Shown: one piece after another, positions 4,180-28,866 of the stretch | Position numbering within the stretch: position 1 is the first letter of the stretch | Layout: every line of letters starts with the position of its first letter | Assembly (NCBI GenBank): GCA_045543775.1 | Contig: JAZPXS010000345.1 | Span: 1-33,146 of the forward strand | Source: Clostridia bacterium | Lineage (GTDB): Bacteria > Bacillota > Clostridia > UMGS1810 | Direction: 5' to 3' | Length of the DNA: 33,146 nt | The notes under the pieces: model-generated | The model's database searches: none | Seen by the model: the letters and a program-made list of their open reading frames with translations, nothing else | Told to the model about the DNA's origin: nothing | Made by a program: the position numbers and the translations under genes

Positions 4180-4196
4180 AGAATTTTCTCCCTTTT

Positions 4197-5690: not shown

Positions 5691-5711
5691 ATTAGATTCC
5701 ACCTCCTGACA

Positions 5712-6737: not shown

Positions 6738-6788
6738 TTGTAAATTGCTCCTTTTTAAAATATCAGCACTCATTACTTTTGTGATATG

Positions 6789-8736: not shown

Positions 8737-9474
8737 TTACTGTATAAACTCCAATACCAGATTGGCAAACAGATTATTTCCGTTGTCGTCTTTTTTATTT
8801 AAGTAACCGCAATGGGTTGAGTTCATTTCCTTGTAAGTAACCTTTGACATATCGTATCTGAAATGTTTTAGTGTTGACATAACCAGCTCTGTCTGTTCAT
8901 AGCGGTTTTCCATATCGTTATCGGAAACGACAATCATCATGGGAGGATACTCTTTTTCCATACCGATAAAGTACAGGGGTGCTGTTTCGTCAACGATGAT
9001 TCTTCTTGTGTCAATGCCCTTTTCACGAAGAACGTTGAAATGAGACGTGGGTTGTCCTGCATCGTGTATATATCCTGCAATATCATCGGGACAAACACCT
9101 GCATCCAGAAGATATCTCTTGTCAAAGCAAAGCATCATGGATATGTATCCGCCGGCGGAGCTGCCGCCAACAAATAATCTCCTGCAGTTTCCGTATTTTT
9201 GCATATTTGCCTTAACCCATGCAATGGAATTTGCGGAATCCACCAGAAAATCGGGGAACTTTGCATCGTTGTACAGTCTGTAATCCACGGATACAACTGC
9301 AATGTTTTTATTTGTAAGATCTTCGGCAAAAAGATCCGCAGCACCTCTGCTTCCGTTTTCGAGACCGCCTCCGTGAAAATATACAAACACATCAAAATCC
9401 CTGCTGTCATCGGGCAGATATATTTTCATCTTTAAATCGTGCTTTTCGTCATATACTATATCATTAATTACCAT
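8737..9474 (-). CDS. alpha/beta-hydrolase fold-3 esterase (HGGG / GxSxG), cytoplasmic
   Basis: ORF track 8737..9528 starts at a TTG inside the terminator hairpin. The ATG at 9474 (MVINDIVYDEK...) is preceded by GGAGG at 9 nt. HGGGL oxyanion motif and GGSSAGG nucleophile elbow. Confidence 0.7.
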   Translation of the reverse strand: MVINDIVYDEKHDLKMKIYLPDDSRDFDVFVYFHGGGLENGSRGAADLFAEDLTNKNIAVVSVDYRLYNDAKFPDFLVDSANSIAWVKANMQKYGNCRRLFVGGSSAGGYISMMLCFDKRYLLDAGVCPDDIAGYIHDAGQPTSHFNVLREKGIDTRRIIVDETAPLYFIGMEKEYPPMMIVVSDNDMENRYEQTELVMSTLKHFRYDMSKVTYKEMNSTHCGYLNKKDDNGNNLFANLVLEFIQ

Positions 9475-9516
9475 TTGTATAAACCTCCGGGGAAATTTTT
9501 GTATATCGTCAAAATT

Positions 9517-9545
9517 ATTATACAACAAGCGTTGCCAAATGGCAA
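9517..9545 (-). promoter_or_regulatory. candidate internal promoter for the esterase-to-araB sub-operon
   Basis: Minus strand reads TTGCCA (9545-9540), 17-nt spacer, TATAAT (9522-9517). The -35 lies in the descending arm of the terminator hairpin. Confidence 0.4.
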
Positions 9546-9552
9546 CGCTTGT
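9525..9552 (-). terminator. GC-rich hairpin downstream of the 651-aa gene (partial or leaky terminator)
   Basis: 12-bp stem acaagcgttgcc / ggcaacgcttgt with a 4-nt loop. On the minus strand it is followed by TGTATAATAATTTT, an interrupted U-tract. It is the only hairpin of this kind inside the long locus. Confidence 0.5.
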
Positions 9553-9573: not shown

Positions 9574-11529
9574 TTATTTTTTGTAAAGAGGCTTTAAGGA
9601 GTCAAAGTTATCCCAAGCAAACACCTTAAGCTCCATAGTATCAGCATTTTCAGGAAGATTGGTGAATGTAAATTCATTTTCACCCATCTTGCCTGCAACT
9701 ATATTTTTGGTCTGTGCCCATACGAGCTTATCAGAGTTTTCTCCGCTAAAGAGTGCTGCAATAACCATTGCATTGAGTTCATCAACATTTTCGTTTGTAA
9801 ATGTTACGGGAACTGTCACTTGTGTTCCGTTATATGCAGGCGTGCCCACTGCCATTGTACCTACGCTGTAAACAGGTGTCTTTAAGGAGAGTGCAGTTGT
9901 GGAGCCTGTTGCAAGTCCCTGATTATTAAGTCCCTTGATACCGGAAAGGTCAAGAGTATAGCTTGTGTCATAATCAAGAGGAGTAACAGGTGCTATTTCT
10001 ACAAGAGATGAACCTGTAAACTTAACGGTAGCTGAAATCTCTTTGTCTGCTGAAACAAACTTAGCAGTAGAACCATCTGCTACTATTCCGTCAAAGGAAA
10101 CTTTAACAGCAGGAGTTGTTGTGCTGAGATTTTCTTTAGATTTTCCACCCAGAATTTCTGTCATAACGCTACCATTAATAATATTTGATACTGTTGACTC
10201 TTCGTGAATAACTTTAACATTATCAATTGAGAATTCAGTATCAGCTACGCCATATCCCTCAAACCACACAGCAGCAAAGGTTATAGCAGTTGTATCTGCC
10301 TCATCCGATAAAACAACGTTTCCATCTTTATCATAAATTTTAATGGTAAGGTGATTTGTTGTACCTTTATTTTCAAAAGTAGTTACAATTGTGTACCACA
10401 CATCTCTTGTGTATGCAACCGCTTTGCCGTCTGTAAACGGAGGTCTCAATCGGAAAGTACCATTGTGCACCCAAAGATATTCATTGTAATCGTTGACACC
10501 AAGCTGTGCAATAGAAGTTCCCGCTGATGTGTCAGTTGCTCTCAAATCGTTGGTGATTTTGAAATCAAACGCTGTGTATGCTACCCCTGTTTCAAAGGTT
10601 GTAGATTTACTTGCTCCATTGGGCTTATAGCTACCCAATGTTTTTATAGCAGGGCTGATATTGCCATCACATTCTTCTCTGGTAATTGTAGAACGCTCAC
10701 CATCGTATATGTATCTACTTGCCCAGTTTCCGCTGGTTCCCATATATGCTTCCAATTTTCCGTTTGTCCAGCCTTCAAAAGTTTCGTTTGCCACTACTGT
10801 TTTAGTAGAGGGAGAAGAACCGTAACTTGATGCAGTGATGTTCAAAGCGTCTGTACCGTCGCCCTGAATTATTCTGATTTCATCAAGAGCAATTGATGCA
10901 TTTTCCAACATATTTACGTTCTTTATTCTTATATACTGAGATGTCTCGTTTCTGGAAGCTGTGTTGATATGTCCGTGCATATCAGAAACTTTAATCTCTG
11001 TTTTGCCCACTGTCATTTTAACCTGTACGTCAACCCATTCGCCTTCAATACATTTAAATCTTACTGTATCACCGGCGTGCCACCACATATAGGTATCGCC
11101 GTTTTTCTGAATGTACATCAATGAGCTGCCGGCACTTGTCTGAATCTGAAAAGCCTGTGTTTCGTCTATACTGTCTACAATTTTCATTTTGAAGTTAAGA
11201 TATACGGGTTCATCTGCAGTAGGTGCAAAGTTCGCATTTTTCTTACCATCTCGTATATCAATCAAAAAACCGCTGCCGCCATCTTCTACAAATGTAACAG
11301 CATTTCCCATATATCCATCATTTGTTATGGATATAGCAGCTCCGTTTGGTCTGAAATAGTTACAGTTATCAAACGCATTTGAATAAGCTGCAATATCTGC
11401 TGCCGAAATAGTTCCGACACTAAGGTCATCAAATGTATCTACCTGGTTGATGCTTGTTGCTGCCTGTGCCACACAAACCAGTGACAGGAGCATTGTTATG
11501 CACAAAAACATTGCACATAATTTTTTCAT
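9574..11529 (-). CDS. secreted protein with two LamG/ConA-like jelly-roll modules, a Big_5 (SbsA Ig)-like domain and a C-terminal beta domain
   Basis: 651 aa. Signal peptide MKKLCAMFLCITMLLSLVCVAQA. N-terminal module is paralogous to the 427-aa neighbour (FAPTADEPVYLNFKMKI, LDEIRIIQG). A second module ends IDNVKVIHE. YTLDLSGIKGLNNQG is Big_5-like. Confidence 0.6.
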   Translation of the reverse strand: MKKLCAMFLCITMLLSLVCVAQAATSINQVDTFDDLSVGTISAADIAAYSNAFDNCNYFRPNGAAISITNDGYMGNAVTFVEDGGSGFLIDIRDGKKNANFAPTADEPVYLNFKMKIVDSIDETQAFQIQTSAGSSLMYIQKNGDTYMWWHAGDTVRFKCIEGEWVDVQVKMTVGKTEIKVSDMHGHINTASRNETSQYIRIKNVNMLENASIALDEIRIIQGDGTDALNITASSYGSSPSTKTVVANETFEGWTNGKLEAYMGTSGNWASRYIYDGERSTITREECDGNISPAIKTLGSYKPNGASKSTTFETGVAYTAFDFKITNDLRATDTSAGTSIAQLGVNDYNEYLWVHNGTFRLRPPFTDGKAVAYTRDVWYTIVTTFENKGTTNHLTIKIYDKDGNVVLSDEADTTAITFAAVWFEGYGVADTEFSIDNVKVIHEESTVSNIINGSVMTEILGGKSKENLSTTTPAVKVSFDGIVADGSTAKFVSADKEISATVKFTGSSLVEIAPVTPLDYDTSYTLDLSGIKGLNNQGLATGSTTALSLKTPVYSVGTMAVGTPAYNGTQVTVPVTFTNENVDELNAMVIAALFSGENSDKLVWAQTKNIVAGKMGENEFTFTNLPENADTMELKVFAWDNFDSLKPLYKK

Positions 11530-11559
11530 AATAAATCATCCTCTCAAATAAATAATATT

Positions 11560-12843
11560 TTATTCAAAGCAATTTATTGCTTCACATACAGGAATAAGTT
11601 TTGGTGAATCGGCAAAAACCAAAATAGTTAAATCACTAAGCTCTTTGCCCTCAGGGAGAGTATATGATGAAAGAATTAATTTGCCGTCAGCATCAATGAC
11701 ACCGTTTCTAAAGTCTAAATAAGACATCTCTCCGTCAGAGTAAATGACACTAAGAATTTTTACATCTGTTGTCGGATAGCCGTTTGTACCGTCAAATGTA
11801 AGTTCAATGGCAGGGGTATCACCAGAGGATATATTCAAGCCGTTCTCTGCAAGGGTGAGTCTGCTGGCTATTTCTGTAGTAAATGTAAATTCATAAGCCG
11901 GTACTTCCAAACCATCCATATCCTCAACGCCGGATAACGTAACGGTATATTCGGTATCCTTATCCAGCATATCTTCAAATATGACATTTACTGTTTCATA
12001 GCTTGTTGTAACCTGATACTTATCAGTGTCCACGGTGTTACCGTCTTGGTCTGTTACAGTAACAACCACATTATCCTCACTAACCTTCATAAAGGGTTCA
12101 TAACGGAAACTAAATTCAGGCATTCTGCTTACATTTTCTGTCTCAGGAGTATTTACCGGCTCCGTTGAGATTTCCTCGCCTTGGGAAATTCTTATTTCAT
12201 CAAATATGATTTGCTGTCCTGCAACAGAAGCCCATCCATTGCCGCGGCAGGAATACATATATAAATAGTTAGCGTTATTTGCTCTGTAACCGGTTACCGA
12301 TGTACCATACTTATCGGTAATTCTGATGTCTGCACGATTTGGTGAAAACTTAACCTGTATGTCGTACCATTCACCGGGTGTGCAGGTGAGATTACCGCTT
12401 TTGTTAGTGGGCATAAAGATATAATCACTGCCGCTTGTCATAATGTAGCACAGGGAATCATATCCGGAATTTATCAGAAAATCTCCGGTATTTCCATCAA
12501 CTTTCAGCTTGAATGAAACATATACAGGTGCATCCGCAGTGGGTGCAAATACTGCAGTATCATTCAGAAGTGCTATCTGGAATTTTGTGGCATCGTTTTC
12601 TGTGATTTTGAGTGCTTTTCCGCTATAACCGTCCTCTATAATTTCAAGAGAAGAACCTTCGGGATAGAACCAGCTTCCAAAGGCCTTTGCATATGTTGTA
12701 ACATCTGCGGCTGAAACGGTTCCGGTATTTAAGGTGTCAAAAGAGTCAAGCGAGCTTAGAACAGGAGTGTCTGCCGACACTACAACTGCACTTCCAAGCA
12801 GCATAACCGCAGCTATAAGAAAGAAAGCTATATATTTCTTCAT
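11560..12843 (-). CDS. secreted LamG/ConA-like plus Big_5-like protein (paralogue of 9574..11529)
   Basis: 427 aa. Signal peptide ending VVSA/DT. FAPTADAPVYVSFKLKV and FDEIRISQG match the neighbour. YTVTLSGVEDMDGLEV is Big_5-like. AAGGAGGA SD. Confidence 0.6.
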   Translation of the reverse strand: MKKYIAFFLIAAVMLLGSAVVVSADTPVLSSLDSFDTLNTGTVSAADVTTYAKAFGSWFYPEGSSLEIIEDGYSGKALKITENDATKFQIALLNDTAVFAPTADAPVYVSFKLKVDGNTGDFLINSGYDSLCYIMTSGSDYIFMPTNKSGNLTCTPGEWYDIQVKFSPNRADIRITDKYGTSVTGYRANNANYLYMYSCRGNGWASVAGQQIIFDEIRISQGEEISTEPVNTPETENVSRMPEFSFRYEPFMKVSEDNVVVTVTDQDGNTVDTDKYQVTTSYETVNVIFEDMLDKDTEYTVTLSGVEDMDGLEVPAYEFTFTTEIASRLTLAENGLNISSGDTPAIELTFDGTNGYPTTDVKILSVIYSDGEMSYLDFRNGVIDADGKLILSSYTLPEGKELSDLTILVFADSPKLIPVCEAINCFE

Positions 12844-12860
12844 TTATTATCTCCTCCTTT

Positions 12861-15482
12861 CTACTCCCAGATATAAACGGCTGCACTATAGAATGCGTAA
12901 GCACCCATATGGATGAAGACCGTTACCTTTTCGGCACTGTTTATATATGTGGGAATGTTCTGGAAATCTCCGCTATAAAGCGTTATTGTTCCGTCTATCA
13001 TATTGTACACGGGGATTTTTGCGGGGTATTTGTACGCAAACACAAACTTTTCATCTTCGGTTACATCACTGAGGTCAGTCTTTGCCACAGCTTCAAAGTG
13101 AGTTGCATTTGTGTTGTAGAGTGTACCGTATTCGTAGTGAAGTCCGCTGGCGGTTAGATCGTCTATATGCATTGTGGGTTCTTTTTCTACGGCAAATGCC
13201 CTCTCAAGCTTGACGATTTTTCCGCTTGCATTCTCTGCAAAACGTACGATATCTCCCTTTCTTATATCAGAAAGTGTCTTGTTTGTAGCTTCGGACACAT
13301 CGGTAAATATGAACTCGTCGCCATCAATCAAATCCTTTGTAATACTGCCTGCGTAACCGTGGAGGTAGAATCTTGTCACATCGTCACCGCTGTCGTTAAG
13401 AGTTTTTACTACCTTTTCTACCATATATGCACGATTCATAAAGCTGATATCGTCACTTACATCTGCATATACAAGTATGCAGGCTGTCTTACCTACCTCA
13501 CCGATATCGTAGCTTTCGTAGTTATAAAAAGTGGATGAAGCGAAAATCAATGGTGACTCTGCCTTAAAGGCGGATTCGTCTGCATCTGCATCGTCTGTTA
13601 CATAGAACACCTTGGTGTCGGAAGCAACAACGGTTCTGTGATCTTCAAATCCGTTGAAGTCGCCCCAGTAACGCATCGCGGTATCCTTTGCACTATAATC
13701 CAGAGAAAGCGAAGTATCTGGAACTTCCTTATCGCCGATATTGGCAGTATCTATGGCTATAATCACACCGCCGGAGAGCTTGTATCTTATGAGCTGACGG
13801 GAATTGAGGACTGCCGGAAGAGTGTATCCGCCATCTATAACCTCTCTGTCTCCGTCGAGGAAATATTTTTCCTTTACATCATAGACAAGAAGCTCGGAAT
13901 CATTATTTAATATCTTAACCTGCATCTTGCTGTCAAATGCATTGCTGTTTACTCCGGCAGCCATAAGATATCCGTACTGCATTTGCTCACCCGATTCTAC
14001 AAGTTCAAAATCGCAAATGGCTCCGAAAGCATCAATTGAAAATTTGTAGGTCGATGCCAATTCAAGAGGATTCTTGACATTCATATCGGATATTACATTC
14101 AAAAGACTGCCGGGAACAAATGTTCTTTCGTCTATTACACACTCCTCAGCGGACATATGCTCAAGCACGCCGGTAACTTTTCGATTGCTTACATATACTC
14201 TCACAAACTCTGCCTTGGAATAATCAAAGCTCAGCTTTCCTGCAGAAATTGTATAAGCATCACACGCAATACTTACTACGGAGTCTGCCTTTATGGCAGC
14301 CATACCGACCTTCATATTGTTTTCGTACAGAGCAAAGGCATTGTCATTTCCATCAAAGTCTATATGCTGTTTGGTGTATTTTGTGTTTATGGCATTACTC
14401 TGAATGCTTGCACTCTCTACTACTTCTGTAACGCATAATGACATATCAACTGTGTCATAGCCGCCGTTATTATCGGAATCGAATACCTCCATAGTACCCG
14501 AGGTGAATACACTGAAAAGCTCCTTGGTTAAATCTCCGGGTTTACCATTTACGATAATTGTTGCAGTGTGAGGAATGCTCACTCTTTTTCCGTCATCGTA
14601 CTTAAATTCCACCTGACTTCTGCCAACCTTAACGTCGTATATGTCGTCGGGATAAAGTGTGAGGGATTCTCCGCTTATGTCTGCAAGACTTACAACAGTT
14701 TTTACTCCACCGACACTGCGAAGATAGTACTTTACCAATCTTCCTGCAAGGGCATCATCAATATCACACTCAGCCTTGTAGATTTTACCGTCGAGATTTA
14801 TGTAGCCTTCCTCACAAAGAACGGCACCCACACTTCTTGAATCTGTGGAAAGCAGCTTAGCCTCTCCTGTTATGAGATTTTTGCTTTCAAGAACTGTCGG
14901 CTGTGCCATCAAAGCACCGTCGTAGGAAATCTCTGCCGGAAGAATTTCCAAAGCATTGAGTATCATAGTTGCCAGGTCGCTTTTTGTAGGATATCCGTCC
15001 GAGGGAGCGACTACGCCGTCAACAAGTCCTATTCTCTTTGCAGAATTCAAATAGGCAGAAACTGTTCCGCCGTTGGCAAGAGCAACTCTGTCGTAATCAA
15101 GAAGAGTTACAAGAGCTATAACTGCATCGTTGTATGTAACCTTCTCATTGGGATTAAAATTGCCATTGCCATCAAGAGCAAGATACTTCTTTTCTATTGT
15201 ATATGCTGCTGCCTGCTTGTCATCCTGCTTATCAACATCGTGTACAAGCTCAGTATCTGCAACTGCCGGAAAATACTCTGGATCGAGTTTGCAAAGCATT
15301 CTGGCAAATTCCATTCTTGTATAATTCACGTGAAAGTACGGAAATTTGACCGCAGTAGCTATGCCTAAATCCTCCAAAACCTCAGCAGGATTTGTTCCAT
15401 AGAATGCAAATGCCAGATTTGCAGGGATAAGCATAGTAAAAGCAATTATTAACGAAAGTACTTTTTTTAGTGTTTTATTCAT
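12861..15482 (-). CDS. large surface protein with divergent N-terminal SLH-like triplet and beta-rich repeats (S-layer-associated, function unknown)
   Basis: 873 aa. Signal peptide ...ANLAFA. Three degenerate SLH-like segments (YTRMEFARMLCKL; GNGNFNPNEKVTYNDAVIALVTLL; GYPTKSDLATMILNAL). The start codon overlaps the upstream stop (ATGA at 15479-15482). Confidence 0.6.
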   Translation of the reverse strand: MNKTLKKVLSLIIAFTMLIPANLAFAFYGTNPAEVLEDLGIATAVKFPYFHVNYTRMEFARMLCKLDPEYFPAVADTELVHDVDKQDDKQAAAYTIEKKYLALDGNGNFNPNEKVTYNDAVIALVTLLDYDRVALANGGTVSAYLNSAKRIGLVDGVVAPSDGYPTKSDLATMILNALEILPAEISYDGALMAQPTVLESKNLITGEAKLLSTDSRSVGAVLCEEGYINLDGKIYKAECDIDDALAGRLVKYYLRSVGGVKTVVSLADISGESLTLYPDDIYDVKVGRSQVEFKYDDGKRVSIPHTATIIVNGKPGDLTKELFSVFTSGTMEVFDSDNNGGYDTVDMSLCVTEVVESASIQSNAINTKYTKQHIDFDGNDNAFALYENNMKVGMAAIKADSVVSIACDAYTISAGKLSFDYSKAEFVRVYVSNRKVTGVLEHMSAEECVIDERTFVPGSLLNVISDMNVKNPLELASTYKFSIDAFGAICDFELVESGEQMQYGYLMAAGVNSNAFDSKMQVKILNNDSELLVYDVKEKYFLDGDREVIDGGYTLPAVLNSRQLIRYKLSGGVIIAIDTANIGDKEVPDTSLSLDYSAKDTAMRYWGDFNGFEDHRTVVASDTKVFYVTDDADADESAFKAESPLIFASSTFYNYESYDIGEVGKTACILVYADVSDDISFMNRAYMVEKVVKTLNDSGDDVTRFYLHGYAGSITKDLIDGDEFIFTDVSEATNKTLSDIRKGDIVRFAENASGKIVKLERAFAVEKEPTMHIDDLTASGLHYEYGTLYNTNATHFEAVAKTDLSDVTEDEKFVFAYKYPAKIPVYNMIDGTITLYSGDFQNIPTYINSAEKVTVFIHMGAYAFYSAAVYIWE

Positions 15483-17218
15483 TTTGCTCCTCCCTTCTTG
15501 TCAAGAAGCCTGCAAAGCACTGCACAGCTCTCTGCTCTGGATATGGAATTCATAGGTTTGAATGTTCCGTCGGTGTAACCGTTTATAATGCCGGAAGCGT
15601 TCATAACTGCTATAGAATCCAAAGCATAGGGTGCAATATCGCCTTTATCTGCAAAAGCTACCTCTGTGTCTGACTTTGATGCAAGTGCACGGCTTAATAT
15701 AACTGCCGCATCCTGTCTGGAAAGGGTGTCCCCTATACCAAAGGTGCCGTCACTCTTGCCGGATATGAGTCCTGCATTGACCGCAGCGGTAACATAGGGT
15801 GCATACCACGCATCTACAGTTACATCTGCAAAATCAGAAGTTTTTTTGCTTATATCAAGCTTAAGTGCAGAAACAACGAGTTTGATAAACTCTTCCTTTG
15901 TAATGGAGGCATCAGGACTGAATGTTTTTTCATCCTTGCCTGCTACTACACCGATGTTGTAGAGTCTGGACACATATTCGTATGCCCAGTGAGTGATTGC
16001 AACATCATTAAAGCTGAGGGGTTTAATCTGTTCCTTTTCCGACTCTTCGGTTACTTCAACAACGGGAGGTCTGTATGAGCCGCCTCCGCCGCTGCTTACA
16101 CGGTTTGAACTGCTGTCGTCCTCGTCTTCTTCCTCAAGACTATCCAGAGCATCGTTATATAGACTAAGGACATCATCATATTCCAAAACTCCATCCTTGT
16201 TTTCGATAATGTAGCTGCAGATGTCTGCCCTGTCATAGTCCGAAAGTCCGCCATCAAGATATGCATCCTTGTCAAGACCGAAGACCTCATAGTATTTCAA
16301 TATAAAATCTTCTGCATCGCCTTTGACAACAACATTATCTTTGAGAACTTCAAGACCGGTAAGAGCCGTAAATTCATTGGCAATACCCTTACCTCTTGTG
16401 ATTTTTGCACTCTTTACTGCAGTCTTTATTGCAGTAAGTATGCTCTCTTTGGTATCACTGCCAAGTAAGCTGAAATCGTCATCCTCGTCTATATCCACAC
16501 TCCAGTACTTGGTGTTGTACTTTGCAAGTGCAGATAGTGTATCGTCACTTTCTGCAAGCTCCTGAAGTGCAAGTGCCTCGTTAAAGGATGTACTGAAATT
16601 GAGTACCGCTGACATATTCTTGTTGGGTTTTCCCTCTTCAAAGGGTGCAAAGGTCTTTAATATTCCGTGAAAAGCTGTCTTTTCCGAGATATTTTCATAG
16701 CTCTCTTTGTCAACACCTATGTTGGAGAGCAAATCCAGATTGGAATCAGTGAGTATGAGTGAGTAGTCTGCATCTTCACTGTTAAAGCTCTTTACCAGAG
16801 ATTCCAACTCGTCAGCATTAATGTGCTTGAAGCTATCTATCTTTACAAGCTCATTTTCGCCCATATAACTCATATAGACAGCACATATGCCGCTTTTGAG
16901 TCCGTCTTTCAGGTTGATTTTGTAGCCTTCGCTTCCAAATGAGAGTGCATCGTCAAGAGTAGTTATTCCAACATACTCCAGAATGCCGTTATATGCTTCT
17001 GTGCTGTTTGCACCTTCAATTTCTGAAAGCTCCCGTTCAGAACCGTCAGCTGCCGGATTTACAATAATTATTGCAACCGGATTTTCTGCATTGGCATTTT
17101 CTACTGTTCCTTTGACAATTACCGATGTTCCATCGTATGAAATTTCGGGAGCCGCACTGACAACAAATGTCGAAAACAGCAAAAGAAAAGCCAAAGCTAA
17201 GGTTATAGTTTTTTTCAT
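15479..17218 (-). CDS. surface protein with C-terminal triple SLH domain, acidic/Gly-rich linker and unknown N-terminal domains
   Basis: 579 aa. Signal peptide ...VVSA/AP. Linker EEEDEDDSSSNRVSSGGGGSYRPP. Three clear SLH repeats (FNDVAITHWAYEYV..., FADVTVDAWYAPYV..., FADKGDIAPYALDS...). AAGGAG SD. Confidence 0.7.
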   Translation of the reverse strand: MKKTITLALAFLLLFSTFVVSAAPEISYDGTSVIVKGTVENANAENPVAIIIVNPAADGSERELSEIEGANSTEAYNGILEYVGITTLDDALSFGSEGYKINLKDGLKSGICAVYMSYMGENELVKIDSFKHINADELESLVKSFNSEDADYSLILTDSNLDLLSNIGVDKESYENISEKTAFHGILKTFAPFEEGKPNKNMSAVLNFSTSFNEALALQELAESDDTLSALAKYNTKYWSVDIDEDDDFSLLGSDTKESILTAIKTAVKSAKITRGKGIANEFTALTGLEVLKDNVVVKGDAEDFILKYYEVFGLDKDAYLDGGLSDYDRADICSYIIENKDGVLEYDDVLSLYNDALDSLEEEDEDDSSSNRVSSGGGGSYRPPVVEVTEESEKEQIKPLSFNDVAITHWAYEYVSRLYNIGVVAGKDEKTFSPDASITKEEFIKLVVSALKLDISKKTSDFADVTVDAWYAPYVTAAVNAGLISGKSDGTFGIGDTLSRQDAAVILSRALASKSDTEVAFADKGDIAPYALDSIAVMNASGIINGYTDGTFKPMNSISRAESCAVLCRLLDKKGGAK

Positions 17219-17238
17219 ACTGACACTCCTTTTGTCAA

Positions 17239-20235
17239 TTATTTTCTAACTAATGTGTATCGTGTTTGAGTATGATGTTTACCGTCTTCGGATATTACAG
17301 TAAATCTTATTTCATCTCTTCCTGCCAAGCCTATTGTTCCCTCCGTATCATTGGGACAACCGTTCACTATAATGCGTGCATCGGGGTGGATGTCTGCATT
17401 GTAGCAAAGATACTCTGCATCGGCAGGGATATGGATATAATTGACTCCATCCTTTTGTGACACGAAGAAGTTATCCTCTTCAAAACCAAAATGTATGTTT
17501 TTAAGCTCACAGTCATAGGATGGCTGGTCTATCTGGTCGACGATAAGTATTTCTACACCTAAACCGTCCACGCTGAGCTTTACACTTCCGTCGTCGCCAA
17601 TTGAATAGGTCTTTTGACTTTCGGCACCCAATACAGATTTTGCATCGCTTAAGCTAAAGTTCACATTCTGAGCACCTTGGGACATATTTACAAGGAAAAT
17701 ATATGTTTTTCCGTTATGCCGTTTTACAAGGTGGGCAAATCTGTCCGGGATAGCTGCACTAAGGTGTATGTCGGGAACATCCTCCACGGAAAGTATGACA
17801 TCCTTGTACTTAGCCAATTCCTCGCTCACATCGGTAACGTCCTTTAAGGCTTCCGCTTTATCTCTCATACCCTTGGTACCGTCGGGGTCATATAGAGTAT
17901 TATCCAGATGGAAGTGGGAGTACCAGATAACAGCCTGTGCACCGGCACATACGGACTGCCATGCCATATTGCGAAGCTCGGTAATGTTGGGGCCTCTTTT
18001 GCGGTTAGCATAGGTTCCGCCCATTGTGGGTCCTAAATCGGAAATCTGAACTACTGACCATACGGGGCGGTTCTTTATTCCCTCACTAAATCCCTTTACA
18101 TGCTCATAGACTTCCCAGATGGGATCGGTTACTCCGTCGTTACCTGTAATTGGATACAGGTCGGGGGCATACACATCGTGACTGCCCGAATAGCCAATTG
18201 CATTGGTTTTTCCGCCGCCTCCTGTACCATAGGTGAGATGATCCATATCTATTTCACTTAATATCTGATTTTGCCACGTAAGTCTTTCTGACCACTGAAG
18301 ATAAGGAGCTTCATTATTAATCTGATAGCCCATATGAGCCTCCAGATTTTTAAGGTCCAAATCCTCTACTATTCTTTCCAGCACGACTCTCTCACTGGCA
18401 ATGGTGGATATGTCGCTGTGCTGAAACTGTTTGCGGAAAGCATCCTTGTATACAGATTCGGTATTTAGCATAACGGATATTCCGCTTTGTGCAAATTTCT
18501 CATAGTTTTCATAATTTTCCCAATGGGAAGAAAAAGAATTTTCTATTATAAAATCTATGGGTTTATTTGCAAAATCCGTCAACACCGACATATCTTTGAA
18601 GCTTCTTGCATAAGCACCGATTCCGAAATACGGTTCCCCATCCTTAACCACGCGTCCGTAGTCATCGAAATAGTATTTGGGCTTGTAATCTTCCTCTCTT
18701 TTTCGGAGTATCCAGTGATTGACATCAAGCTCTGTATTATCATTAATGTTTATAAGTCTTATTGCCAGATCATAATCACCGATTGCAAGCTCTCCTGACG
18801 AAAAGCTGATATCCATTCTATCCGAAATATCCGATATCTCCGAATGTCTTATAACATTGGAAATCTTGCCGCCGGTTATAGGTGATATTTCTGCAATAAG
18901 CTTATAGTCCTCTTCATTCAAAAATGTGCCAAGTCCATTTATATAGGAAGTAACCCGTATATCTCCCCTGCCGTCCGGGTCTGTTATAAGACCTTTGTAT
19001 GCAGGTTTATCAAGAACTGTTGTAAGCGGATTATATATAACTTTAAATATTTTTATATTGTCAATCCATACATTTCCCTTTACAACAGAATTGCTATCGG
19101 CAGTATTGGCGTCCTTTATCTGGATTGCCATACGCACAAATTCCGGATTGCTTTCTGCACTTATGGCACCGGAAACATAGGTCTGCTTAGTCCAGTCGGT
19201 ATTTTTGGTAATATCGCCGCCGTAGATATACCCGCCTCCGATATTTGTATTTGATGCGTTGTACCACTCAATACCTATACGGACACTTGCGTTTTCCATA
19301 CCCTCTGTCTTGATATCCCAGCTGATACAGTACTCTGTTCCGGCTTCTACATCATCAAAAAATATATTTTCGGTAGAGGCACTGCCACCGGCTGAGTGCT
19401 TTATTGAACGGGATGAATCCTTACCCACGGTTGTGTCTACTACTGCCGGAACAGTGTCTACTCCGGTATGAGTAAGATCAAAGGAAATATTGTCATCCTC
19501 AAAATCTTCAAAAGCTACCTCAACGCTGGGATACTGCAAAACTGTCTTTTCCACAGGAATTATATCCTGTAAATGGTCATCATAGGCATTTACATCGGAT
19601 ATGAGAACTCTGTCTATAAACACACAGAATTCAAGCCTTGTAATATCGTCTGTAGGCTTAAAACAATTATTGCCATTAAGGTCGGCAACATTCATATTTA
19701 CAAGTGTTGTAACAGCATCCAGAGCATAGTCGGATATACTATCCGCATCGGCAATAGTATATCTTTCTGTTTCTTCCAGTGCTATTGATTTGTAATTTGC
19801 CATATTTGCAACAATTACTGCGGCATCCTGACGGGTTATATTGCTTCCTATTCCAAAGGAGCCGTCACCTGCACCCTGCATAAGACCTGCACTGCAGGCG
19901 GCATTTACATAGCTCTCATACCAGGAGCCTGCCTCAACATCGTTAAACGAGCTGCCGGCACCGCTTAATGGTGCCCCGGCAGCCTTGACAATAATCTTGG
20001 CTGCCTCTTCACGCGTGAGAGTGTCGTTGGGGGCAAATTTACTGCTCGTTTTCCCTTCCACAATACCCTGCTCATAAAGACTCTTTACACTATAGTATCC
20101 ATTGGAAAAAGTCCAGGCACGAGGCATATCGGTAAAAGGTAATTGTGCCGCTGCAAAAGCCGTTGGGATAACCGAAGTAAATATTGCAAAAGCAACAATC
20201 AGGGTTATTATTTTTTTTAGATGTTTTCTATTCAT
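17239..20235 (-). CDS. SLH-anchored multidomain putative glycoside hydrolase (SLH x3, CBM4/9-like, beta-sandwich, TIM-barrel-like with NNE motif, beta domain, cadherin-like C-terminus)
   Basis: 998 aa. Signal peptide ...TAFA/AA. SLH repeats (LTREEAAKIIV, ITRQDAAVIV, ITRLEFCVFI). CBM_4_9-like segment ending NVWIDNIKIF. GEPYFGIGAY and QINNEAP (Glu codon 18310-18312) resemble clan GH-A strands. C-terminal Cadg-like RFTVISEDGKHHTQTRYTLV. Confidence 0.65.
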   Translation of the reverse strand: MNRKHLKKIITLIVAFAIFTSVIPTAFAAAQLPFTDMPRAWTFSNGYYSVKSLYEQGIVEGKTSSKFAPNDTLTREEAAKIIVKAAGAPLSGAGSSFNDVEAGSWYESYVNAACSAGLMQGAGDGSFGIGSNITRQDAAVIVANMANYKSIALEETERYTIADADSISDYALDAVTTLVNMNVADLNGNNCFKPTDDITRLEFCVFIDRVLISDVNAYDDHLQDIIPVEKTVLQYPSVEVAFEDFEDDNISFDLTHTGVDTVPAVVDTTVGKDSSRSIKHSAGGSASTENIFFDDVEAGTEYCISWDIKTEGMENASVRIGIEWYNASNTNIGGGYIYGGDITKNTDWTKQTYVSGAISAESNPEFVRMAIQIKDANTADSNSVVKGNVWIDNIKIFKVIYNPLTTVLDKPAYKGLITDPDGRGDIRVTSYINGLGTFLNEEDYKLIAEISPITGGKISNVIRHSEISDISDRMDISFSSGELAIGDYDLAIRLININDNTELDVNHWILRKREEDYKPKYYFDDYGRVVKDGEPYFGIGAYARSFKDMSVLTDFANKPIDFIIENSFSSHWENYENYEKFAQSGISVMLNTESVYKDAFRKQFQHSDISTIASERVVLERIVEDLDLKNLEAHMGYQINNEAPYLQWSERLTWQNQILSEIDMDHLTYGTGGGGKTNAIGYSGSHDVYAPDLYPITGNDGVTDPIWEVYEHVKGFSEGIKNRPVWSVVQISDLGPTMGGTYANRKRGPNITELRNMAWQSVCAGAQAVIWYSHFHLDNTLYDPDGTKGMRDKAEALKDVTDVSEELAKYKDVILSVEDVPDIHLSAAIPDRFAHLVKRHNGKTYIFLVNMSQGAQNVNFSLSDAKSVLGAESQKTYSIGDDGSVKLSVDGLGVEILIVDQIDQPSYDCELKNIHFGFEEDNFFVSQKDGVNYIHIPADAEYLCYNADIHPDARIIVNGCPNDTEGTIGLAGRDEIRFTVISEDGKHHTQTRYTLVRK

Positions 20236-23196
20236 TTATTCTACCGGCTTTTCTCTTATTACAATATTATAGGTTGTGTTGCTCTCATGTGCACCGTCCT
20301 CGGAGACAACGGTAACTACGAATTTGTCAAGACCTTCTATGGAAATCTTTCCGCTATGAGATACCTCACTGCCATTTATTAATAGCTTAGCATCCTTGTG
20401 AGTTTTAGCATCGTAGTAGATTTCTGTAGCACATGATGGCAGGAAAACTGTACGTTCATTATCGCCTATAGATACAAAGTAGCTCTTTTCACCGTTTGTA
20501 ATATTAAGGTTATCAAGAGTGCAATCGCAGGAGAGCTGTTCGCCCTGTTCGATTATAAGCACTTCTACACCGAGAGCATCCAGACTAATGTCTACATAGC
20601 CCTCTTCGTCAACCTTATATTCCTTGTTGGCGTATGCACCAAAAACGGATTTTGCATCAGAGAGCTTTATGCTTACAGACTGCGACTGCTTTTTATCCAT
20701 ATTTACAAGGAACACATATGTCTTTCCGTCATATCTGCGGACAAGATGCACAAGCTCCTCGGGAATTCCTGCTTTTGGATACACATCGGGAGCATCCTCC
20801 ACGGACAAAATCGCATCCTTGAACTTGAGTACTTCCTCGGTTACACCAAAGTATTCGGGCATTGTTTCCGACTTGGGACGGGAGATATTGGGATATGCCT
20901 TTTCGTCCAGATGGAAGTGTGCATACCATATAATACCCTGTGTTCCGCCGCAAACGGACTGCCACGCCATATTTCTGAGTTCCGTTTCGTTAGGTCCTCT
21001 TTTTCTGTGAGCATAAGCTCCGCCCATGGTAGGTCCAAGGTCGGAAATCTGAAGTGCGAACCACATAGGACGGTTAAAGGAGTAATCATAAAATCCCTTT
21101 GCCTGGTCGTAAACACTTCTTATGTCATCTGTATCGAAGCCTTCAATAGGATAGCGGTCTGGAGCATATATATCCTGACATCTTGCATAGTCAATTGCAG
21201 CCTGCTTACCACCGGCACCAACGCCGTAGGTAAGATGGTTAAAATCAACAGCATCAAATATTTTCTGCTGCCAAGCAAGTCTTTCCGCCCATTCGTTTGC
21301 AGGGCTTTCGTTGTTGGTCTGATAACCCAGATGAGCAGGATGATCTATAAGTCCCAGATCCTCAATGGTTCTCTCCACAATTGCTCTCTCCGAGGCAATT
21401 GTAGTAACATCAACGTGCTGATATGCAGGTCTGAAAGCATCCTTGAACATTGACTCTGTGCTTATCATTGATGTCATTCCATACTCTGCAAGCTTATCCA
21501 TAACCTCTTTACTTGTCCAGTAACGGCTAAAGGAGTTCTCTATAACAAAATCAATGGGAGAATCCTTAAAGTCCTCAACTGCATCGGGATGGGTGTTTCT
21601 TGCATAGACACCAATCGCAAACCAGGGTTCACCGTTTCTCAGCAGTCTGCCGTATTCGTCAAAGCTATAGGTTGATTTGAAGTCGGGTTCTCTTTTTCTT
21701 ATAACATAGCCGTTATAACCAATTTGTCTTCCCGTCTCAATATCCATAAGCTTTGTATACAGGATATAGTCACCTACGGATAAATCCTTTGACGAGAATG
21801 TAACATCCATTTCCTTTGTAGGATTGGTGATTTTGGACTCGGTTATAACATTGCCGTCCATATCGGTAAGAGCAGTTGTAAGCTCGCATTTTGCCGGATC
21901 GTAGGAAGCACCGAGACCTTCTATATATGTAGTAAGGTGAATATCGCTTTCGCCATTGGGGTCAGTGATGAGGCCCTTGTAGGCAGGCTTGTTGAGATAT
22001 GACTTAACAGGTTCAAAAACGATTCTGTACAGGTCAAGATTATCTATATAAACCTTACCGTCGGTCTTTCCTCTTATGGAGATTACTATACGAAGATACG
22101 CAGGAGGCTTATCCGGTGAGGGGGATGTGGTTGAACCCTGATAGGTCTTCCAATCTGTATCGCCATAGGTATCTGCTGTCTTTATGTAGGAACCGCCCAA
22201 AGCAACACCTGATGTTGTTACCCACTCAAGATTTACACGGGCATAGCAATCGCCAAGCCCCTCGGTCTTCATATCCCAGCTCATAATATAGTTGGTGCTG
22301 GGAGCATAATCATACAGATATAGCTCAAATGATGAGTAATCATCGCCGTCGCCCTCGAGCACCAGAGCACCGCTTCCGTCTACGCCGGCATCCTTAACAA
22401 GGTACTCAGAGGCAGGCTTTCCGCCGTGTCTTGCCTCATAGTCGCCAAGTGTCTTGATTTTGCCTTCAAAATCCTCAAAAGCAACAGACTCATTGTCATA
22501 TTCGGATATATCCTTATCCACGGGAATCCAATCCTGAATATGGTCGTCATATGCATTTACATCGGATATAAGAAGTCTGTCAAGCCATACGCAAAAATCA
22601 AGTCTTGTTATATCTTCTTTGGGTTCAAACTTGCTATTTACAAGGTCAATTACATTGAACTTAACAAGCTTTTCTATAGCTTCCTTGGCATAAGCAGATG
22701 CATCTGCAATGTCAGCTACAGTATGTTCTGTAATCAGCTCTATTCCGATATTCAGGTAATCTGCCATTCTGACAAGCAGCACTGTTACATCCTGACGGGT
22801 AATATTCTGACCTACGCCAAACTGATTGTTCCCGATACCTTTCATAAGTCCGGACTCATTTACTGTTTCTACATTCTCTTCATACCAGCTTCCGGAAACT
22901 ACATCTGTAAATGTATCTCTGTTTGCTGATACCGGAAGCTCAGCAGCCAGAGAGATAATCTTGGCTGCTTCCTCACGGGTAAGAGGGTCATTGGGAGCAA
23001 ATAATGTATCGGTTTTTCCTTCTATTATGCCTTTTTCCCACAGAGCTTTAACATTCATATAGCCGGAGCTGTTTGTACGCACAATATCTGTAAATGGGAA
23101 CTCCGCCTTGTATGTTTCGTCTGCAAAAGCAGGCATAACACCAAAGGAAGAAAGAAGCATTGCAAAAACCAGCAATAATAATGTAAAACGCTTCAT
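20236..23196 (-). CDS. SLH-anchored multidomain putative glycoside hydrolase, tandem paralogue of 17239..20235
   Basis: ORF track 20236..23226. The ATG at 23196 (MKRFTLLLLVFAMLL..AFA/DE signal peptide) follows AAGGAGG. Collinear with the neighbour (NKPAYKGLITDP, QTNNESP with Glu codon 21307-21309, LQISDLGPTMGG, RKRGPNETELRNMAWQSVC, FLVNM). Its TAA stop directly abuts the next ATG. Confidence 0.65.
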   Translation of the reverse strand: MKRFTLLLLVFAMLLSSFGVMPAFADETYKAEFPFTDIVRTNSSGYMNVKALWEKGIIEGKTDTLFAPNDPLTREEAAKIISLAAELPVSANRDTFTDVVSGSWYEENVETVNESGLMKGIGNNQFGVGQNITRQDVTVLLVRMADYLNIGIELITEHTVADIADASAYAKEAIEKLVKFNVIDLVNSKFEPKEDITRLDFCVWLDRLLISDVNAYDDHIQDWIPVDKDISEYDNESVAFEDFEGKIKTLGDYEARHGGKPASEYLVKDAGVDGSGALVLEGDGDDYSSFELYLYDYAPSTNYIMSWDMKTEGLGDCYARVNLEWVTTSGVALGGSYIKTADTYGDTDWKTYQGSTTSPSPDKPPAYLRIVISIRGKTDGKVYIDNLDLYRIVFEPVKSYLNKPAYKGLITDPNGESDIHLTTYIEGLGASYDPAKCELTTALTDMDGNVITESKITNPTKEMDVTFSSKDLSVGDYILYTKLMDIETGRQIGYNGYVIRKREPDFKSTYSFDEYGRLLRNGEPWFAIGVYARNTHPDAVEDFKDSPIDFVIENSFSRYWTSKEVMDKLAEYGMTSMISTESMFKDAFRPAYQHVDVTTIASERAIVERTIEDLGLIDHPAHLGYQTNNESPANEWAERLAWQQKIFDAVDFNHLTYGVGAGGKQAAIDYARCQDIYAPDRYPIEGFDTDDIRSVYDQAKGFYDYSFNRPMWFALQISDLGPTMGGAYAHRKRGPNETELRNMAWQSVCGGTQGIIWYAHFHLDEKAYPNISRPKSETMPEYFGVTEEVLKFKDAILSVEDAPDVYPKAGIPEELVHLVRRYDGKTYVFLVNMDKKQSQSVSIKLSDAKSVFGAYANKEYKVDEEGYVDISLDALGVEVLIIEQGEQLSCDCTLDNLNITNGEKSYFVSIGDNERTVFLPSCATEIYYDAKTHKDAKLLINGSEVSHSGKISIEGLDKFVVTVVSEDGAHESNTTYNIVIREKPVE

Positions 23197-23238
23197 AAAT
23201 ACCTCCTTGCTTAACTTTTCTATCATATAATGTGAATT

Positions 23239-24816
23239 TTACTTACCTATTGTCTTATTCATTTCATTACTTACTTCGTCGATCTTGTTCTGAATGCTCT
23301 TGAGCTTATTCTTCCACTCTTTTTCTACATCGTCTGTTTTGGTAATGATTTCTGCCATTATTGTGCTTATATCGTGTGTGGAAGAGAACTTGCTGTAAAT
23401 GTCGGAATTGTAGAATTCCACATCAAGGTCAAGCTTCTTTGTTTCGGGCTTGGAATCAAATTTCGCCTTCATAAATGCACTTACTGCATCGACATTTTCC
23501 TTTTTAACGTTGGCACCTATACGTGCAACAGGGTTAAAGCTGCCAAAGAAGTCTGCAGATGGATATACATCGGAGAGCTTTGCAACGGAGCCGTCTTCCT
23601 TTGGAGGAATAAGAGAGGAAATTGTTCCGTCTTCCTTAACCTCGTAGTCCTTACCCTCAAAACCGTTTAAGAGAAGCATTCCGCCCTCTTCACTTGCAAA
23701 GAAGTCTATCATAGAAAGAAGTCTGTTATATGCTTCGTCATCTATTTCAGGTCTGAAGTACAGGCAAGACCAGTAGTTTGCCATTTCTCTTGCTCTTACC
23801 TTGCCATCCTTACCCTCTATCCACGCAAGCTTTAAGCATTCGTCGGGATTAAGTCCGGGGTTTGCCTGACCAAAGGTTGTTTTGTATGACTGGAAGTCCG
23901 AAGCACCGCAGCTTGTAAAGAGTATGCCGGCTTTTCCTGAATGAAGATATCCGGCAATATCGGATGCTTTGTGTGTAAAGAATGTGGGATGGAGCACGCC
24001 TTTGTCATATGCTTCCTTATATGCTTTAAGTCCCTCTACGGTTGCCTTGTCGTTATAGCCGGAAACATATTTGCCCTTGCTGTTTTTGTAGAAAACATTC
24101 CAGTTGGGGTTCTGTGCATGAACAAATATGAAAGGTGCGTTTGCAGGACTTACTGCAACACCCATATTATTTGACTGACCAACACCGCCAAGGTCGGCTT
24201 TCTTAAATTCTACTGCCATATTGATAAAGTCATCATAAGCCATAATATCGGATGTTTCGATACCAAGCTTATCTGCCCAGTCTTTTCTGTAGATAAAGCC
24301 GTGTCTGTCAAGGTTGGGAACATCCGAACCAAAGCCGTACTGCTCAACTGAGCTCATAGCTCTGGGAATACCGAATATCACACCGTCTCCCTCTTTTTCG
24401 AGCTTTTCGAGTATTCTTGTACGCTCAAGTCCTGCTTTAATGTTGGGATATTTTTCTGCATAATCTTCAGGAAGTGCTTTAACAAGTCCCTGCTTGCCCC
24501 AGCTGATGTAGTCATTGTACACAAACTCACTGAAAATCATATCGGGCAGTGTGCCTGCTGTAGCAAGAAGTCTTGTCTTTTCTGCCATACCGTCCATTGT
24601 CATTGACTGAACATCAAACTCTATGCCGAATTTATCGGAAATGAATTTGCAGAGTTCATCGTCCTGCCAGCCTTCAAGAGGACTTAGTGCACCAACTGTA
24701 ACAGTGATTTTTTCTCCGTCAGCAACATTTGTTTTCTTGTCTCCGCAAGAAGCAAACATTGCCATAGCCATAACGGCTATCAACATAACTGCCAAAATTC
24801 TTGTAAACTTTTTCAT
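23239..24816 (-). CDS. ABC transporter extracellular solute-binding lipoprotein (family 1, LplA/YtcQ-like, oligosaccharide)
   Basis: 525 aa. Lipobox MFASC. Size and composition are typical of large CUT1 sugar-binding lipoproteins. AGGAGG SD 7 nt upstream. Confidence 0.75.
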   Translation of the reverse strand: MKKFTRILAVMLIAVMAMAMFASCGDKKTNVADGEKITVTVGALSPLEGWQDDELCKFISDKFGIEFDVQSMTMDGMAEKTRLLATAGTLPDMIFSEFVYNDYISWGKQGLVKALPEDYAEKYPNIKAGLERTRILEKLEKEGDGVIFGIPRAMSSVEQYGFGSDVPNLDRHGFIYRKDWADKLGIETSDIMAYDDFINMAVEFKKADLGGVGQSNNMGVAVSPANAPFIFVHAQNPNWNVFYKNSKGKYVSGYNDKATVEGLKAYKEAYDKGVLHPTFFTHKASDIAGYLHSGKAGILFTSCGASDFQSYKTTFGQANPGLNPDECLKLAWIEGKDGKVRAREMANYWSCLYFRPEIDDEAYNRLLSMIDFFASEEGGMLLLNGFEGKDYEVKEDGTISSLIPPKEDGSVAKLSDVYPSADFFGSFNPVARIGANVKKENVDAVSAFMKAKFDSKPETKKLDLDVEFYNSDIYSKFSSTHDISTIMAEIITKTDDVEKEWKNKLKSIQNKIDEVSNEMNKTIGK

Positions 24817-25719: not shown

Positions 25720-25732
25720 TATTCTCCTTTCC

Positions 25733-27654: not shown

Positions 27655-27655
27655 A

Positions 27656-28824: not shown

Positions 28825-28866
28825 TCGCTATAATGTTAGACCAGCATGAAAGGAGGGTATGCAGAT

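Follow-up and report, generated by a model that had tools for sequence, protein, structure and literature searches.

What do six consecutive genes for secreted proteins do beside an oligosaccharide importer, when no enzyme family can be recognised in them by eye? The question is raised by a locus of a Clostridia bacterium that we analysed in a stretch of 33,146 nucleotides (contig JAZPXS010000345.1 of assembly GCA_045543775.1), referred to throughout as the window, where positions 9574-23226 hold six consecutive co-directional open reading frames (ORFs) on the minus strand, here named g1 to g6. We consider it probable, rather than assured, that these six genes make up the extracellular side of a Gram-positive polysaccharide utilisation locus (PUL), the bacterium being an uncultured member of the Clostridia that probably lives in an animal gut, and this is, with catalysis and substrate counted in, the best explanation of the whole. 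The locus type and carbohydrate-active enzymes (CAZymes) anchored by S-layer homology (SLH) domains are already known; what appears to be new is an unannotated glycoside hydrolase (GH)-like family with an apparently altered catalytic set, together with a conserved accessory module.

Fold and relatives of the g1 and g2 barrel

The proteins g1 and g2 are paralogs, 46% identical over their full length. Each begins with an SLH domain of three repeats (Pfam E 2.5e-26 in g1 and 3.9e-27 in g2), and an AlphaFold2 model of g2, computed from a 15-sequence alignment (predicted local distance difference test, pLDDT, 83; predicted template modelling score, pTM, 0.84), places behind it a jelly roll resembling carbohydrate-binding modules (CBM) of families 4 and 9, an immunoglobulin (Ig)-like beta-sandwich, a barrel and two C-terminal beta domains (Table 1). 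The barrel is of the (beta/alpha)8 type that defines clan GH-A, with eight strand/helix units at aa 538-830. When this model was compared with the PDB by Foldseek, the best 50 matches were all GH2 enzymes (beta-galactosidases, beta-glucuronidases and related GH2 enzymes; E 1.9e-18 to 7e-15, about 10% identity), which have the order of jelly roll, Ig domain and barrel in common with g2. According to the model, g1 and g2 are SLH-anchored multimodular glycoside-hydrolase-like proteins with a GH2-like layout. Among the accessory modules that a preliminary description of the block had listed, the CBM4/9-like and cadherin-like ones are sub-threshold here (CBM_4_9 in g2, Pfam E 0.0099; Cadherin-like in g1, 22.4 bits against a cutoff of 24.2) and pass the cutoff in relatives, Big_5 passes it in g5 (24.9 bits against 23.6) and is sub-threshold in g6, and the LamG-like module was supported by no tool.

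Named families gave no such placement. Neither Pfam (E<=0.01) nor NCBIfam returned a GH family model at threshold for g1 or g2, the NCBIfam matches being SLH-containing 'exception' models only, and PDB sequence searches with g2, with the g1/g2 family profile and with the barrel profile gave SLH matches or nothing, and no barrel relative. A word-indexed search with the C-terminal part of g2 recovered 15 relatives only, and HMMER, run exhaustively with the barrel profile, recovered 3,026 representative clusters at E<=1e-3, of which 1,057 also reach E<=1e-10 and 138 reach E<=1e-30 (clusters at 50% identity; the figure of 3,026 is a lower bound). Most members are about 640 aa long and combine the barrel with a CBM4_9 and an Ig domain; those that bear a name belong to Kiritimatiellia, Oscillospiraceae, Clostridia and Paenibacillus. 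A profile of 60 members matched the GH158 structure 9oro_A over barrel strands 3-6 (E 5.9e-10), which is the best sequence-level link to a solved structure, and gave weak matches to GH2, GH42 and GH5; furthermore, hhalign related the family to the beta-glucuronidase UidA of E. coli with 91% probability (E 1e-6). By these profile comparisons the barrel is remotely homologous to the clan GH-A families GH158 and GH2. We found no description of it in the literature on DUF4434, on Monoglobus SLH proteins and on new rhamnogalacturonan GH families, and no family in Pfam, NCBIfam or the PDB claims it. The barrel belongs to a large family of its own, unannotated in these three resources, which may already be listed in CAZy. 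The opinion that none of the roughly 4500 aa of the block could be placed has to be given up for the g1/g2 barrel, whose fold and clan are assignable from model and profiles, and is retained for family, mechanism and substrate: no Pfam, NCBIfam or PDB match ties the large proteins to any characterised family of known substrate.

Comparison with the nearest known families delimits the barrel further. With GH2 enzymes such as E. coli UidA and Bacteroides BuGH2A it shares the succession of jelly-roll sugar-binding domain, Ig domain and barrel (Foldseek E 1e-18), and the family aligns with UidA at the acid/base Glu of strand 4 and at the Tyr of strand 6 (hhalign 91%); in contrast, identity is about 10%, a Gln stands at the nucleophile position and an Asp replaces Asn466 of UidA, and g1 and g2 add SLH anchors and C-terminal cadherin-like domains. 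Membership of GH2 was rejected because the models Glyco_hydro_2_N, Glyco_hydro_2 and Glyco_hydro_2_C give no match in g1 or g2 at E<=0.01; a few distant relatives match part of Glyco_hydro_2_C weakly, barely at its 21-bit cutoff. The GH158 endo-beta-1,3-glucanases (BuGH158, GH158(Pro), PDB 9oro) resemble g1 and g2 in combining a barrel of clan GH-A-type geometry with an Ig domain. Their catalytic residues are Glu143 and Glu229 (PMC13195107), and the latter, the nucleophile in the motif VTEFG, has no counterpart in the g1/g2 family, nor does the locus offer a laminarin-type context. We rejected membership of GH158 since the match is partial (strands 3-6), is given by the broad family profile and by none at the g1/g2 level, and the nucleophile is not conserved. 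GH148, represented by EngU, has an INNE-type motif at strand 4, a weak local similarity to GH42, a CBM4 insertion that separates strand 4 from helix 4, and a nucleophile within the motif VTEYN (PMC5725463). The strand-4 motif is common to GH148 and g2, and membership was nevertheless rejected, as helix 645-662 of g2 directly follows strand 634-641 with no insertion and there is no strand-7 Glu. Relatives in the barrel family give sub-threshold or borderline Glyco_hydro_42 matches, and membership of GH42 was also rejected.

Putative active site of the barrel

Conservation of individual residues was counted across 164-167 members of the barrel family and is given here in g2 numbering. At the end of strand 4, position 642 is Glu in 163/164 members, preceded at position 641 by Asp in 148 and by Asn in 15 (of 164), the g1/g2 subfamily having Asn-Glu. 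This pair aligns with N412-E413 of UidA and with the Asn-Glu of GH158 that includes Glu143, and N641-E642 of g2, the candidate acid/base, has the Glu after Asn that is usual at this place in clan GH-A. At the end of strand 6, Asp is found at position 692 in 158/164 members and Tyr at position 694 in 164/164; the Asp-x-Tyr so formed (D-P-Y in the hhalign alignment) matches N466-R-Y468 of UidA. Strand 7, which in clan GH-A ends with the Glu nucleophile, ends in g2, in an inferred register, with Gln730, and Gln is present at this position in 162/164 members. Its motif, RPVWSVVQ, parallels RPWLVTE of GH158, QPIIITE of UidA and VTEYN of GH148; greedy extension of the hhalign alignment against UidA yielded no trustworthy register for strand 7. 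On these grounds Gln appears to occupy the nucleophile position of clan GH-A in the barrel family. Beyond it, Arg747 (137/162), Glu753 (150/164), Gln760 (157/164) and Tyr772 (147/164) are conserved, and Arg755 is also listed among the conserved residues.

Conservation across the family suggests an active site that is maintained and works differently, and speaks against a recently dead enzyme, because the Gln is family-wide and Glu642, Asp692, Tyr694 and Tyr772 are near-invariant. Since the canonical nucleophile is missing, we propose that the second carboxylate may be Asp692, or that neighbouring-group participation may serve instead, as in the hexosaminidase families with an Asp-Glu pair. Catalysis would accordingly be non-canonical, with the Asp/Asn-Glu of strand 4 as acid/base, the Asp-x-Tyr of strand 6, and Gln in place of the strand-7 nucleophile.

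Neighbouring-group participation would have consequences for the substrate. A strand-4 Asp/Asn-Glu pair with a conserved Tyr and without an enzymic nucleophile is also seen in GH18, GH20, GH56, GH84, GH85 and GH123. The barrels might be retaining, substrate-assisted enzymes acting on beta-linked 2-acetamido sugars, and the polymer an N-acetylhexosamine glycan (mucin or glycosaminoglycan, chitin-like or microbial) instead of pectin. The prevalence of Asp-Glu in the family with Asn-Glu in the g1/g2 subfamily, the conserved Tyr694 and Tyr772 and the lack of a strand-7 carboxylate agree with this, as do an Amidohydro_1 gene in the locus and a DUF4838 protein near one family member. Compatible as this residue pattern is with GH18, GH20, GH84, GH85 and GH123, no hexosaminidase model of Pfam or NCBIfam matches, nagA, nagB and an N-acetylglucosamine kinase were not recognised in the locus, the neighbours of family members are GH28, GH78 and carbohydrate esterases, and Asn-Glu is also an ordinary clan GH-A motif. 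We consider such an activity improbable.

Slightly less probable still is that g1 and g2 are pseudo-enzymes with a lectin-like barrel, the block being a capture apparatus for a polymer that is depolymerised by enzymes encoded elsewhere. Gln in place of the expected strand-7 Glu and the lack of any GH family model at threshold would be explained in this way. Nonetheless, a Gln shared by the whole family is no sign of recent loss, the four near-invariant residues named above are retained in more than 160 representatives, and in most loci the g1/g2-type proteins are the sole candidate extracellular enzyme beside the importer. We retain the reading of g1 and g2 as the enzymes of a PUL in what follows.

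Partner proteins and conserved gene order

The remainder of the block consists of proteins that look like anchors or binders and, as far as sequence and models tell, non-catalytic. The coordinates of the ORFs confirm the preliminary description in its claim of six co-directional genes at distances between -4 and 30 nt (0, 20, -4, 17 and 30 nt from g1 to g6), g2 starting directly at the stop codon of g1. It also assigned a signal peptide to each product, with which we agree: all six N-termini, judged by eye, have a K/R-rich stretch, a hydrophobic stretch and an A-x-A motif, as Sec signal peptides do. Clear Shine-Dalgarno sequences precede g3, g4, g5 and g6, and AAGGAGG precedes the g1 ATG at 23196, which yields a product of 986 aa. 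A terminator-like hairpin follows the stop codon of g6; a promoter-like site on the minus strand (9545-9517, 11/12 matches) overlaps it. The GC content is even across the region, and neither Rfam families nor tRNAs were found in the window.

SLH domains, whose hallmark is a pseudo-trimer of three repeats (PF00395), had been ascribed to four of the six proteins, and are present in g1, g2 and g3 according to Pfam and in the 873-aa g4 according to its predicted fold. In g3 an unassigned N-terminal region of about 380 aa and an acidic, Gly-rich linker precede a C-terminal triplet (aa 402-575, Pfam E 3.8e-32); its PDB matches are to SLH only, and no other Pfam match was obtained at E<=5. In g4 the SLH match in Pfam reaches E 0.032 at most and no Pfam or NCBIfam family matches at normal thresholds. 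Its AlphaFold2 model (pLDDT 77) begins with a divergent helical trimer that superposes on the SLH trimers of SpaA and Sap (Foldseek prob 1.00, target template modelling (TM) score 0.53-0.72), and two g4 homologs bear a precomputed SLH match. Behind the trimer lies a chain of small beta-barrels, for which Foldseek gave OB/SH3-like or beta-propeller chains at low TM only, and no enzyme-like match; PDB searches by sequence with g4 returned SLH matches at most, and a metagenome scan seeded with g4 gave no match.

The 427-aa g5 and the 651-aa g6 had been described as devoid of a visible anchor, and indeed neither an SLH domain (Pfam) nor an LPXTG motif was found in them; sortase anchoring was rejected on the latter ground. 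g5 consists of a beta-rich N-domain of about 200 aa, Big_5 and a C-terminal domain of about 100 aa, and g6 of two copies of the g5-type N-domain (homologous at E 6e-37), a Big_5-like domain and a C-terminal domain. No relative of g5 or g6 was found in the PDB, even by profile, a protein homolog search with the g6 N-domain alone gave no match, and no catalytic match was obtained for g3, g5 or g6 in Pfam, NCBIfam or the PDB. In distant loci, g6-like proteins (L011, 5731-9849; L005, 2908-6339 and 6397-9810) carry DUF4886, an SGNH-hydrolase-like domain. Because g6-like proteins elsewhere bear this domain, the g5/g6 N-domain would seem to behave as a portable targeting module on differing payloads.

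At least five further lineages, among genomes and metagenome contigs, show the gene order again, down to about 25-30% identity, so that the block is syntenic outside the window. In assembly GCA_052839965.1 (L002), the AraC regulator, permeases, substrate-binding protein (SBP), g1 to g6, the esterase and the 205-aa gene stand in the same order. The contig JAZQBI010000044.1 (L001/L004), a metagenome-assembled genome (MAG) contig also labelled 'Clostridia bacterium', comes from a close relative (AraC 96%, DHDPS 94% and g1 83% identical; the PfkB, DHDPS and AraC genes are 93-96% identical in L004) and holds two modules. The first, AraC-g1-g3-g4-g5, has a single enzyme and is without g6; the second, DHDPS-ribokinase-ABC-SBP-g1'-g2'-g3'-g4'-g5'-g6'-g6'', has two g6-like genes. 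At 23-33% identity the set of enzyme, g3, g4 and g5 is kept in L011, in L005 (partially) and in L017. The L011 locus contains g3-g4-g5, a 1,372-aa g6-like protein with DUF4886, a 782-aa enzyme without SLH, a GH28, CE15-like and GDSL esterases and a beta-helix protein, and L017 has the order ABC-SBP-enzyme-g3-g4-g5. In Paenibacillus sp. IITD108 (L012; JAZHCT010000008.1, 10001-18954), two family enzymes, one of them with SLH, stand after an ABC importer and ahead of a GH78 alpha-L-rhamnosidase, behind which a two-component system is encoded. The set of ABC importer, enzyme, g3, g4 and g5, with or without a g6-like protein, is conserved across deep divergence.

The overlap of 4 nt between the start of g4 and the stop of g3 (15479-15482 in the window) suggests translational coupling of the two genes, and perhaps a stoichiometric g3-g4 complex, because it is conserved in four other loci (L001, 14678-14681; L002, 14731-14734; L004, 14729-14732; L011, 1670-1673). 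Known PULs of Gram-positive bacteria with SLH-anchored CAZymes, such as the Paenibacillus, Caldicellulosiruptor and Monoglobus-type systems, resemble the present locus in that regulator, ABC importer with lipoprotein SBP, wall-anchored enzymes and cytoplasmic exo-enzymes are co-localised. The difference lies in the three or four secreted, apparently non-catalytic proteins (g3 to g6) that are conserved together with the enzymes, and in that no extracellular protein is placed here in a named CAZy family, with Pfam, NCBIfam and the PDB as proxies. With cellulosomes and amylosomes the locus shares the idea of a wall-anchored non-catalytic scaffold holding unanchored partners, the docking here being hypothetical, whereas the cohesin and dockerin modules of those systems are not matched: Pfam finds none in g3 to g6 at E<=5 and none in g1/g2 at E<=0.01. 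An assembly of the cellulosome type was rejected for this reason.

Four SLH proteins in one block, and the resemblance of g4 to an S-layer-type chain of beta domains, could also be taken as a sign of cell-envelope machinery, in which g3 and g4 would belong to the S-layer or be associated with it, while g1 and g2 would serve to remodel the secondary cell-wall polymer or the capsule of the bacterium itself. This seems quite unlikely to us, as the block is consistently joined to an oligosaccharide ABC importer, AraC and genes for cytoplasmic sugar catabolism (in the window, L002, L001/L004, L017 and L012), the CBM4/9-type modules of g1 and g2 are typical of polysaccharide depolymerases, and the tandem duplication of the module seen in one MAG is of a kind common for nutrient loci. 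A PUL remains our preferred reading of the gene order.

Flanking genes, substrate and biological meaning

The neighbourhood of the block (Table 1) agrees with what had been reported of it: an ABC importer with a lipoprotein SBP lies upstream, and a signal-less esterase, a GH28 and kinases lie downstream. Regulator, importer, secreted candidates, cytoplasmic enzymes and synteny bear out the layout of a Gram-positive PUL that had been proposed, the combination in the window being AraC, ABC importer with SBP, g1/g2, GH28, esterase and kinases; synteny is found in L001/L004, L002, L011, L017 and L012. The SBP distantly resembles the oligosaccharide binders FusA and AlgQ1/2.

Table 1. Positions of the genes, domains, residues and signals described in the text (window coordinates; amino acid numbering as in the respective protein).
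Feature	Position	Strand	Remarks
g1	20236-23226 (ORF); 20236..23196 from the ATG backed by a ribosome-binding site	-	996 aa from first ATG; 986 aa from 23196 ATG
g1 predicted (beta/alpha)8 barrel	20740..21687	-	mapped by alignment to g2
g1 barrel residues	Glu630 codon 21307-21309; Asp680 21157-21159; Gln716 21049-21051	-	by alignment to g2
g2	17239-20235	-	998 aa; g1 paralog
g2 SLH triplet	19591..20148	-	aa ~30-215; PDB matches Sap and SbsB SLH
g2 CBM4/9-like jelly roll	19036..19527	-	aa ~237-400; all-beta in model; family-wide profile matches CBM4/22-type PDB chains
g2 Ig-like beta-sandwich	18700..19026	-	aa ~404-512; AlphaFold2 secondary structure; fits GH2-like domain order in Foldseek
g2 (beta/alpha)8 barrel	17746..18678	-	aa ~520-830; eight alternating strand/helix units in model
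g2 Asn641-Glu642	18310..18315	-	end of strand 4; candidate acid/base
g2 Asp692-Leu-Tyr694	18154..18162	-	end of strand 6
g2 Gln730	18046..18048	-	last residue of predicted strand 7 (727-730)
g2 C-terminal beta-sandwich and cadherin-like domain	17245..17739	-	aa 833-997; two beta domains in model, the last cadherin-like
g3	15479-17218	-	579 aa; predicted secreted
g3 C-terminal SLH triplet	15494-16015	-	Pfam
g4	12861-15482	-	873 aa; predicted secreted
g4 N-terminal SLH-fold trimer	~14943-15395	-	divergent; predicted fold
g5	11560-12843	-	427 aa; predicted secreted, unanchored
g6	9574-11529	-	651 aa; predicted secreted, unanchored
Palindromic hairpin	9525..9552		12-bp stem, T-rich tail; just after g6 stop; terminator-like
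AraC regulator	28846-29724	+	divergent
DHDPS-family aldolase	27656-28600	-	
PfkB kinase	26749-27663	-	passes NCBIfam ribokinase equivalog cutoff
Two ABC permeases	24850-25752, 25733-26689	-	Pfam; upstream of block
Lipoprotein SBP	23239-24816	-	525 aa; lipobox-like FASC
BD-FAE/Abhydrolase_3 esterase	8737-9528	-	no signal peptide; downstream of block
Conserved 205-aa protein	8104-8721	-	signal-less
GH28	6789-8093	-	signal-less; best NCBIfam models rhamnogalacturonidase and polygalacturonase, below cutoffs
Octopine/nopaline-dehydrogenase-like gene	5712-6773
501-aa protein	4197-5702		weak neutral-ceramidase N-terminal match
Amidohydrolase (Amidohydro_1)	2980-4179		best match Xaa-Pro dipeptidase, sub-threshold
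Ribulokinase (FGGY)	1214-2842		clear assignment

As for the substrate, an acetylated pectic or rhamnogalacturonan-type plant glycan is the most likely, a guess of low confidence that we base on the repeated occurrence of GH28, GH78 and acetyl or other esterases beside family members: a GH28 adjoins a barrel-family enzyme in the window and in L011, and the esterases found near members are of the BD-FAE, GDSL, CE15-like and DUF4886 types. The locus also appears to be tied to pentose catabolism, since its PfkB kinase is of the ribokinase type and its FGGY kinase is a ribulokinase; a reading of the PfkB/DHDPS pair as 2-keto-3-deoxygluconate kinase and aldolase was dropped because PfkB passes the ribokinase equivalog cutoff. 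That the barrel is a lyase or non-hydrolytic transglycosylase on uronic-acid polymers, with Gln730 and Arg747/Arg755 dealing with the carboxylate and a Tyr or Glu serving as base or acid, is very unlikely: the missing nucleophile, the conserved Arg747, Arg755, Gln730, Gln760, Tyr694 and Tyr772 and a context (GH28) that points to uronate-type substrates would suit it, but we know of no polysaccharide lyase with a clan GH-A-type barrel, no unsaturated-uronate enzymes (GH88, GH105, KduI/KduD) were found in the window and the proposal is purely speculative.

Some observations on the neighbouring genes stand by themselves. The TTG start of the esterase (9528) lies inside the terminator-like hairpin, and the real start is probably an internal ATG (MVINDIVYD..., near 9474). 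The 205-aa protein matches no family, save for a faint similarity to 3-keto-disaccharide hydrolases (E 0.043), and is 77% identical in L002, in the same place after the esterase. The amidohydrolase, 501-aa and opine-dehydrogenase-like genes between GH28 and ribulokinase (2980-6773) do not obviously belong in a glycan locus. The outer flanks are unrelated: a Dabb stress-barrel protein (722-1033) on one side and, on the other, a DUF2383 protein (29868-30302), a MatE efflux pump (30345-31679) and a PNPase-like protein (RNase PH, KH, S1; 32138-33118), of which the window end leaves the C-terminal part.

In the PUL that we favour, g1 and g2 would cleave the polymer at the surface of the wall. A wall-bound non-catalytic scaffold would be formed by g3 and g4, which have C-terminal and N-terminal SLH domains respectively and whose genes seem to be translationally coupled, and the beta-rich, unanchored g5 and g6 would bind the glycan, dock on the scaffold, or both. 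The adjacent lipoprotein SBP and ABC permeases would import the oligosaccharides, and cytoplasmic GH28, esterase and sugar kinases would finish the breakdown. Several points weigh against this model. First, the expected strand-7 nucleophile is absent, and hydrolysis is not guaranteed; the equivalence of Gln730 with the nucleophile rests on motif and predicted secondary structure, the hidden Markov model (HMM) alignments losing significance past strand 6. In addition, members of the barrel family bear the names 'hypothetical protein' or 'S-layer homology domain-containing protein' only, so that their activity is predicted, and the docking of g5 and g6 on g3 and g4 is hypothetical. Besides, the substrate is deduced from a handful of neighbouring genes, among which the ribokinase, the ribulokinase, the opine-dehydrogenase-like gene and the amidohydrolase have no obvious fit to pectin, and the gene contexts of the family members of about 640 aa in Kiritimatiellia and other contigs were uninformative.

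A bolder form of the model may be put forward as a tentative proposal, which we hold to be possible and do not expect with any confidence. The barrel would represent a new GH family of gut and environmental Clostridia, Paenibacillus and Kiritimatiellia, of clan GH-A descent, in which the strand-6 Asp or participation of the substrate replaces the nucleophile, and in Clostridia g3 to g6 would form an SLH-anchored complex. If this were true, the four-protein complex, with a g3-g4 scaffold and g5 and g6 as binders, would be the Gram-positive equivalent of systems of surface glycan-binding proteins.

The Gram-positive Clostridia of the gut rank among the main degraders of fibre, and much less is charted of their machinery at the surface than of the Sus-like systems of Bacteroidota. 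The locus described here is simple and well delimited and suited to recombinant work, and the Paenibacillus relative belongs to a cultured, experimentally tractable genus. At least 3,000 clusters (50% identity) of unannotated GH2/GH158-like barrels are a target for enzyme discovery, and they raise the mechanistic question of how a clan GH-A scaffold works without its nucleophile. Altogether, non-catalytic wall-anchored and secreted partners that travel with the enzymes and the ABC importer suggest a dedicated capture complex.

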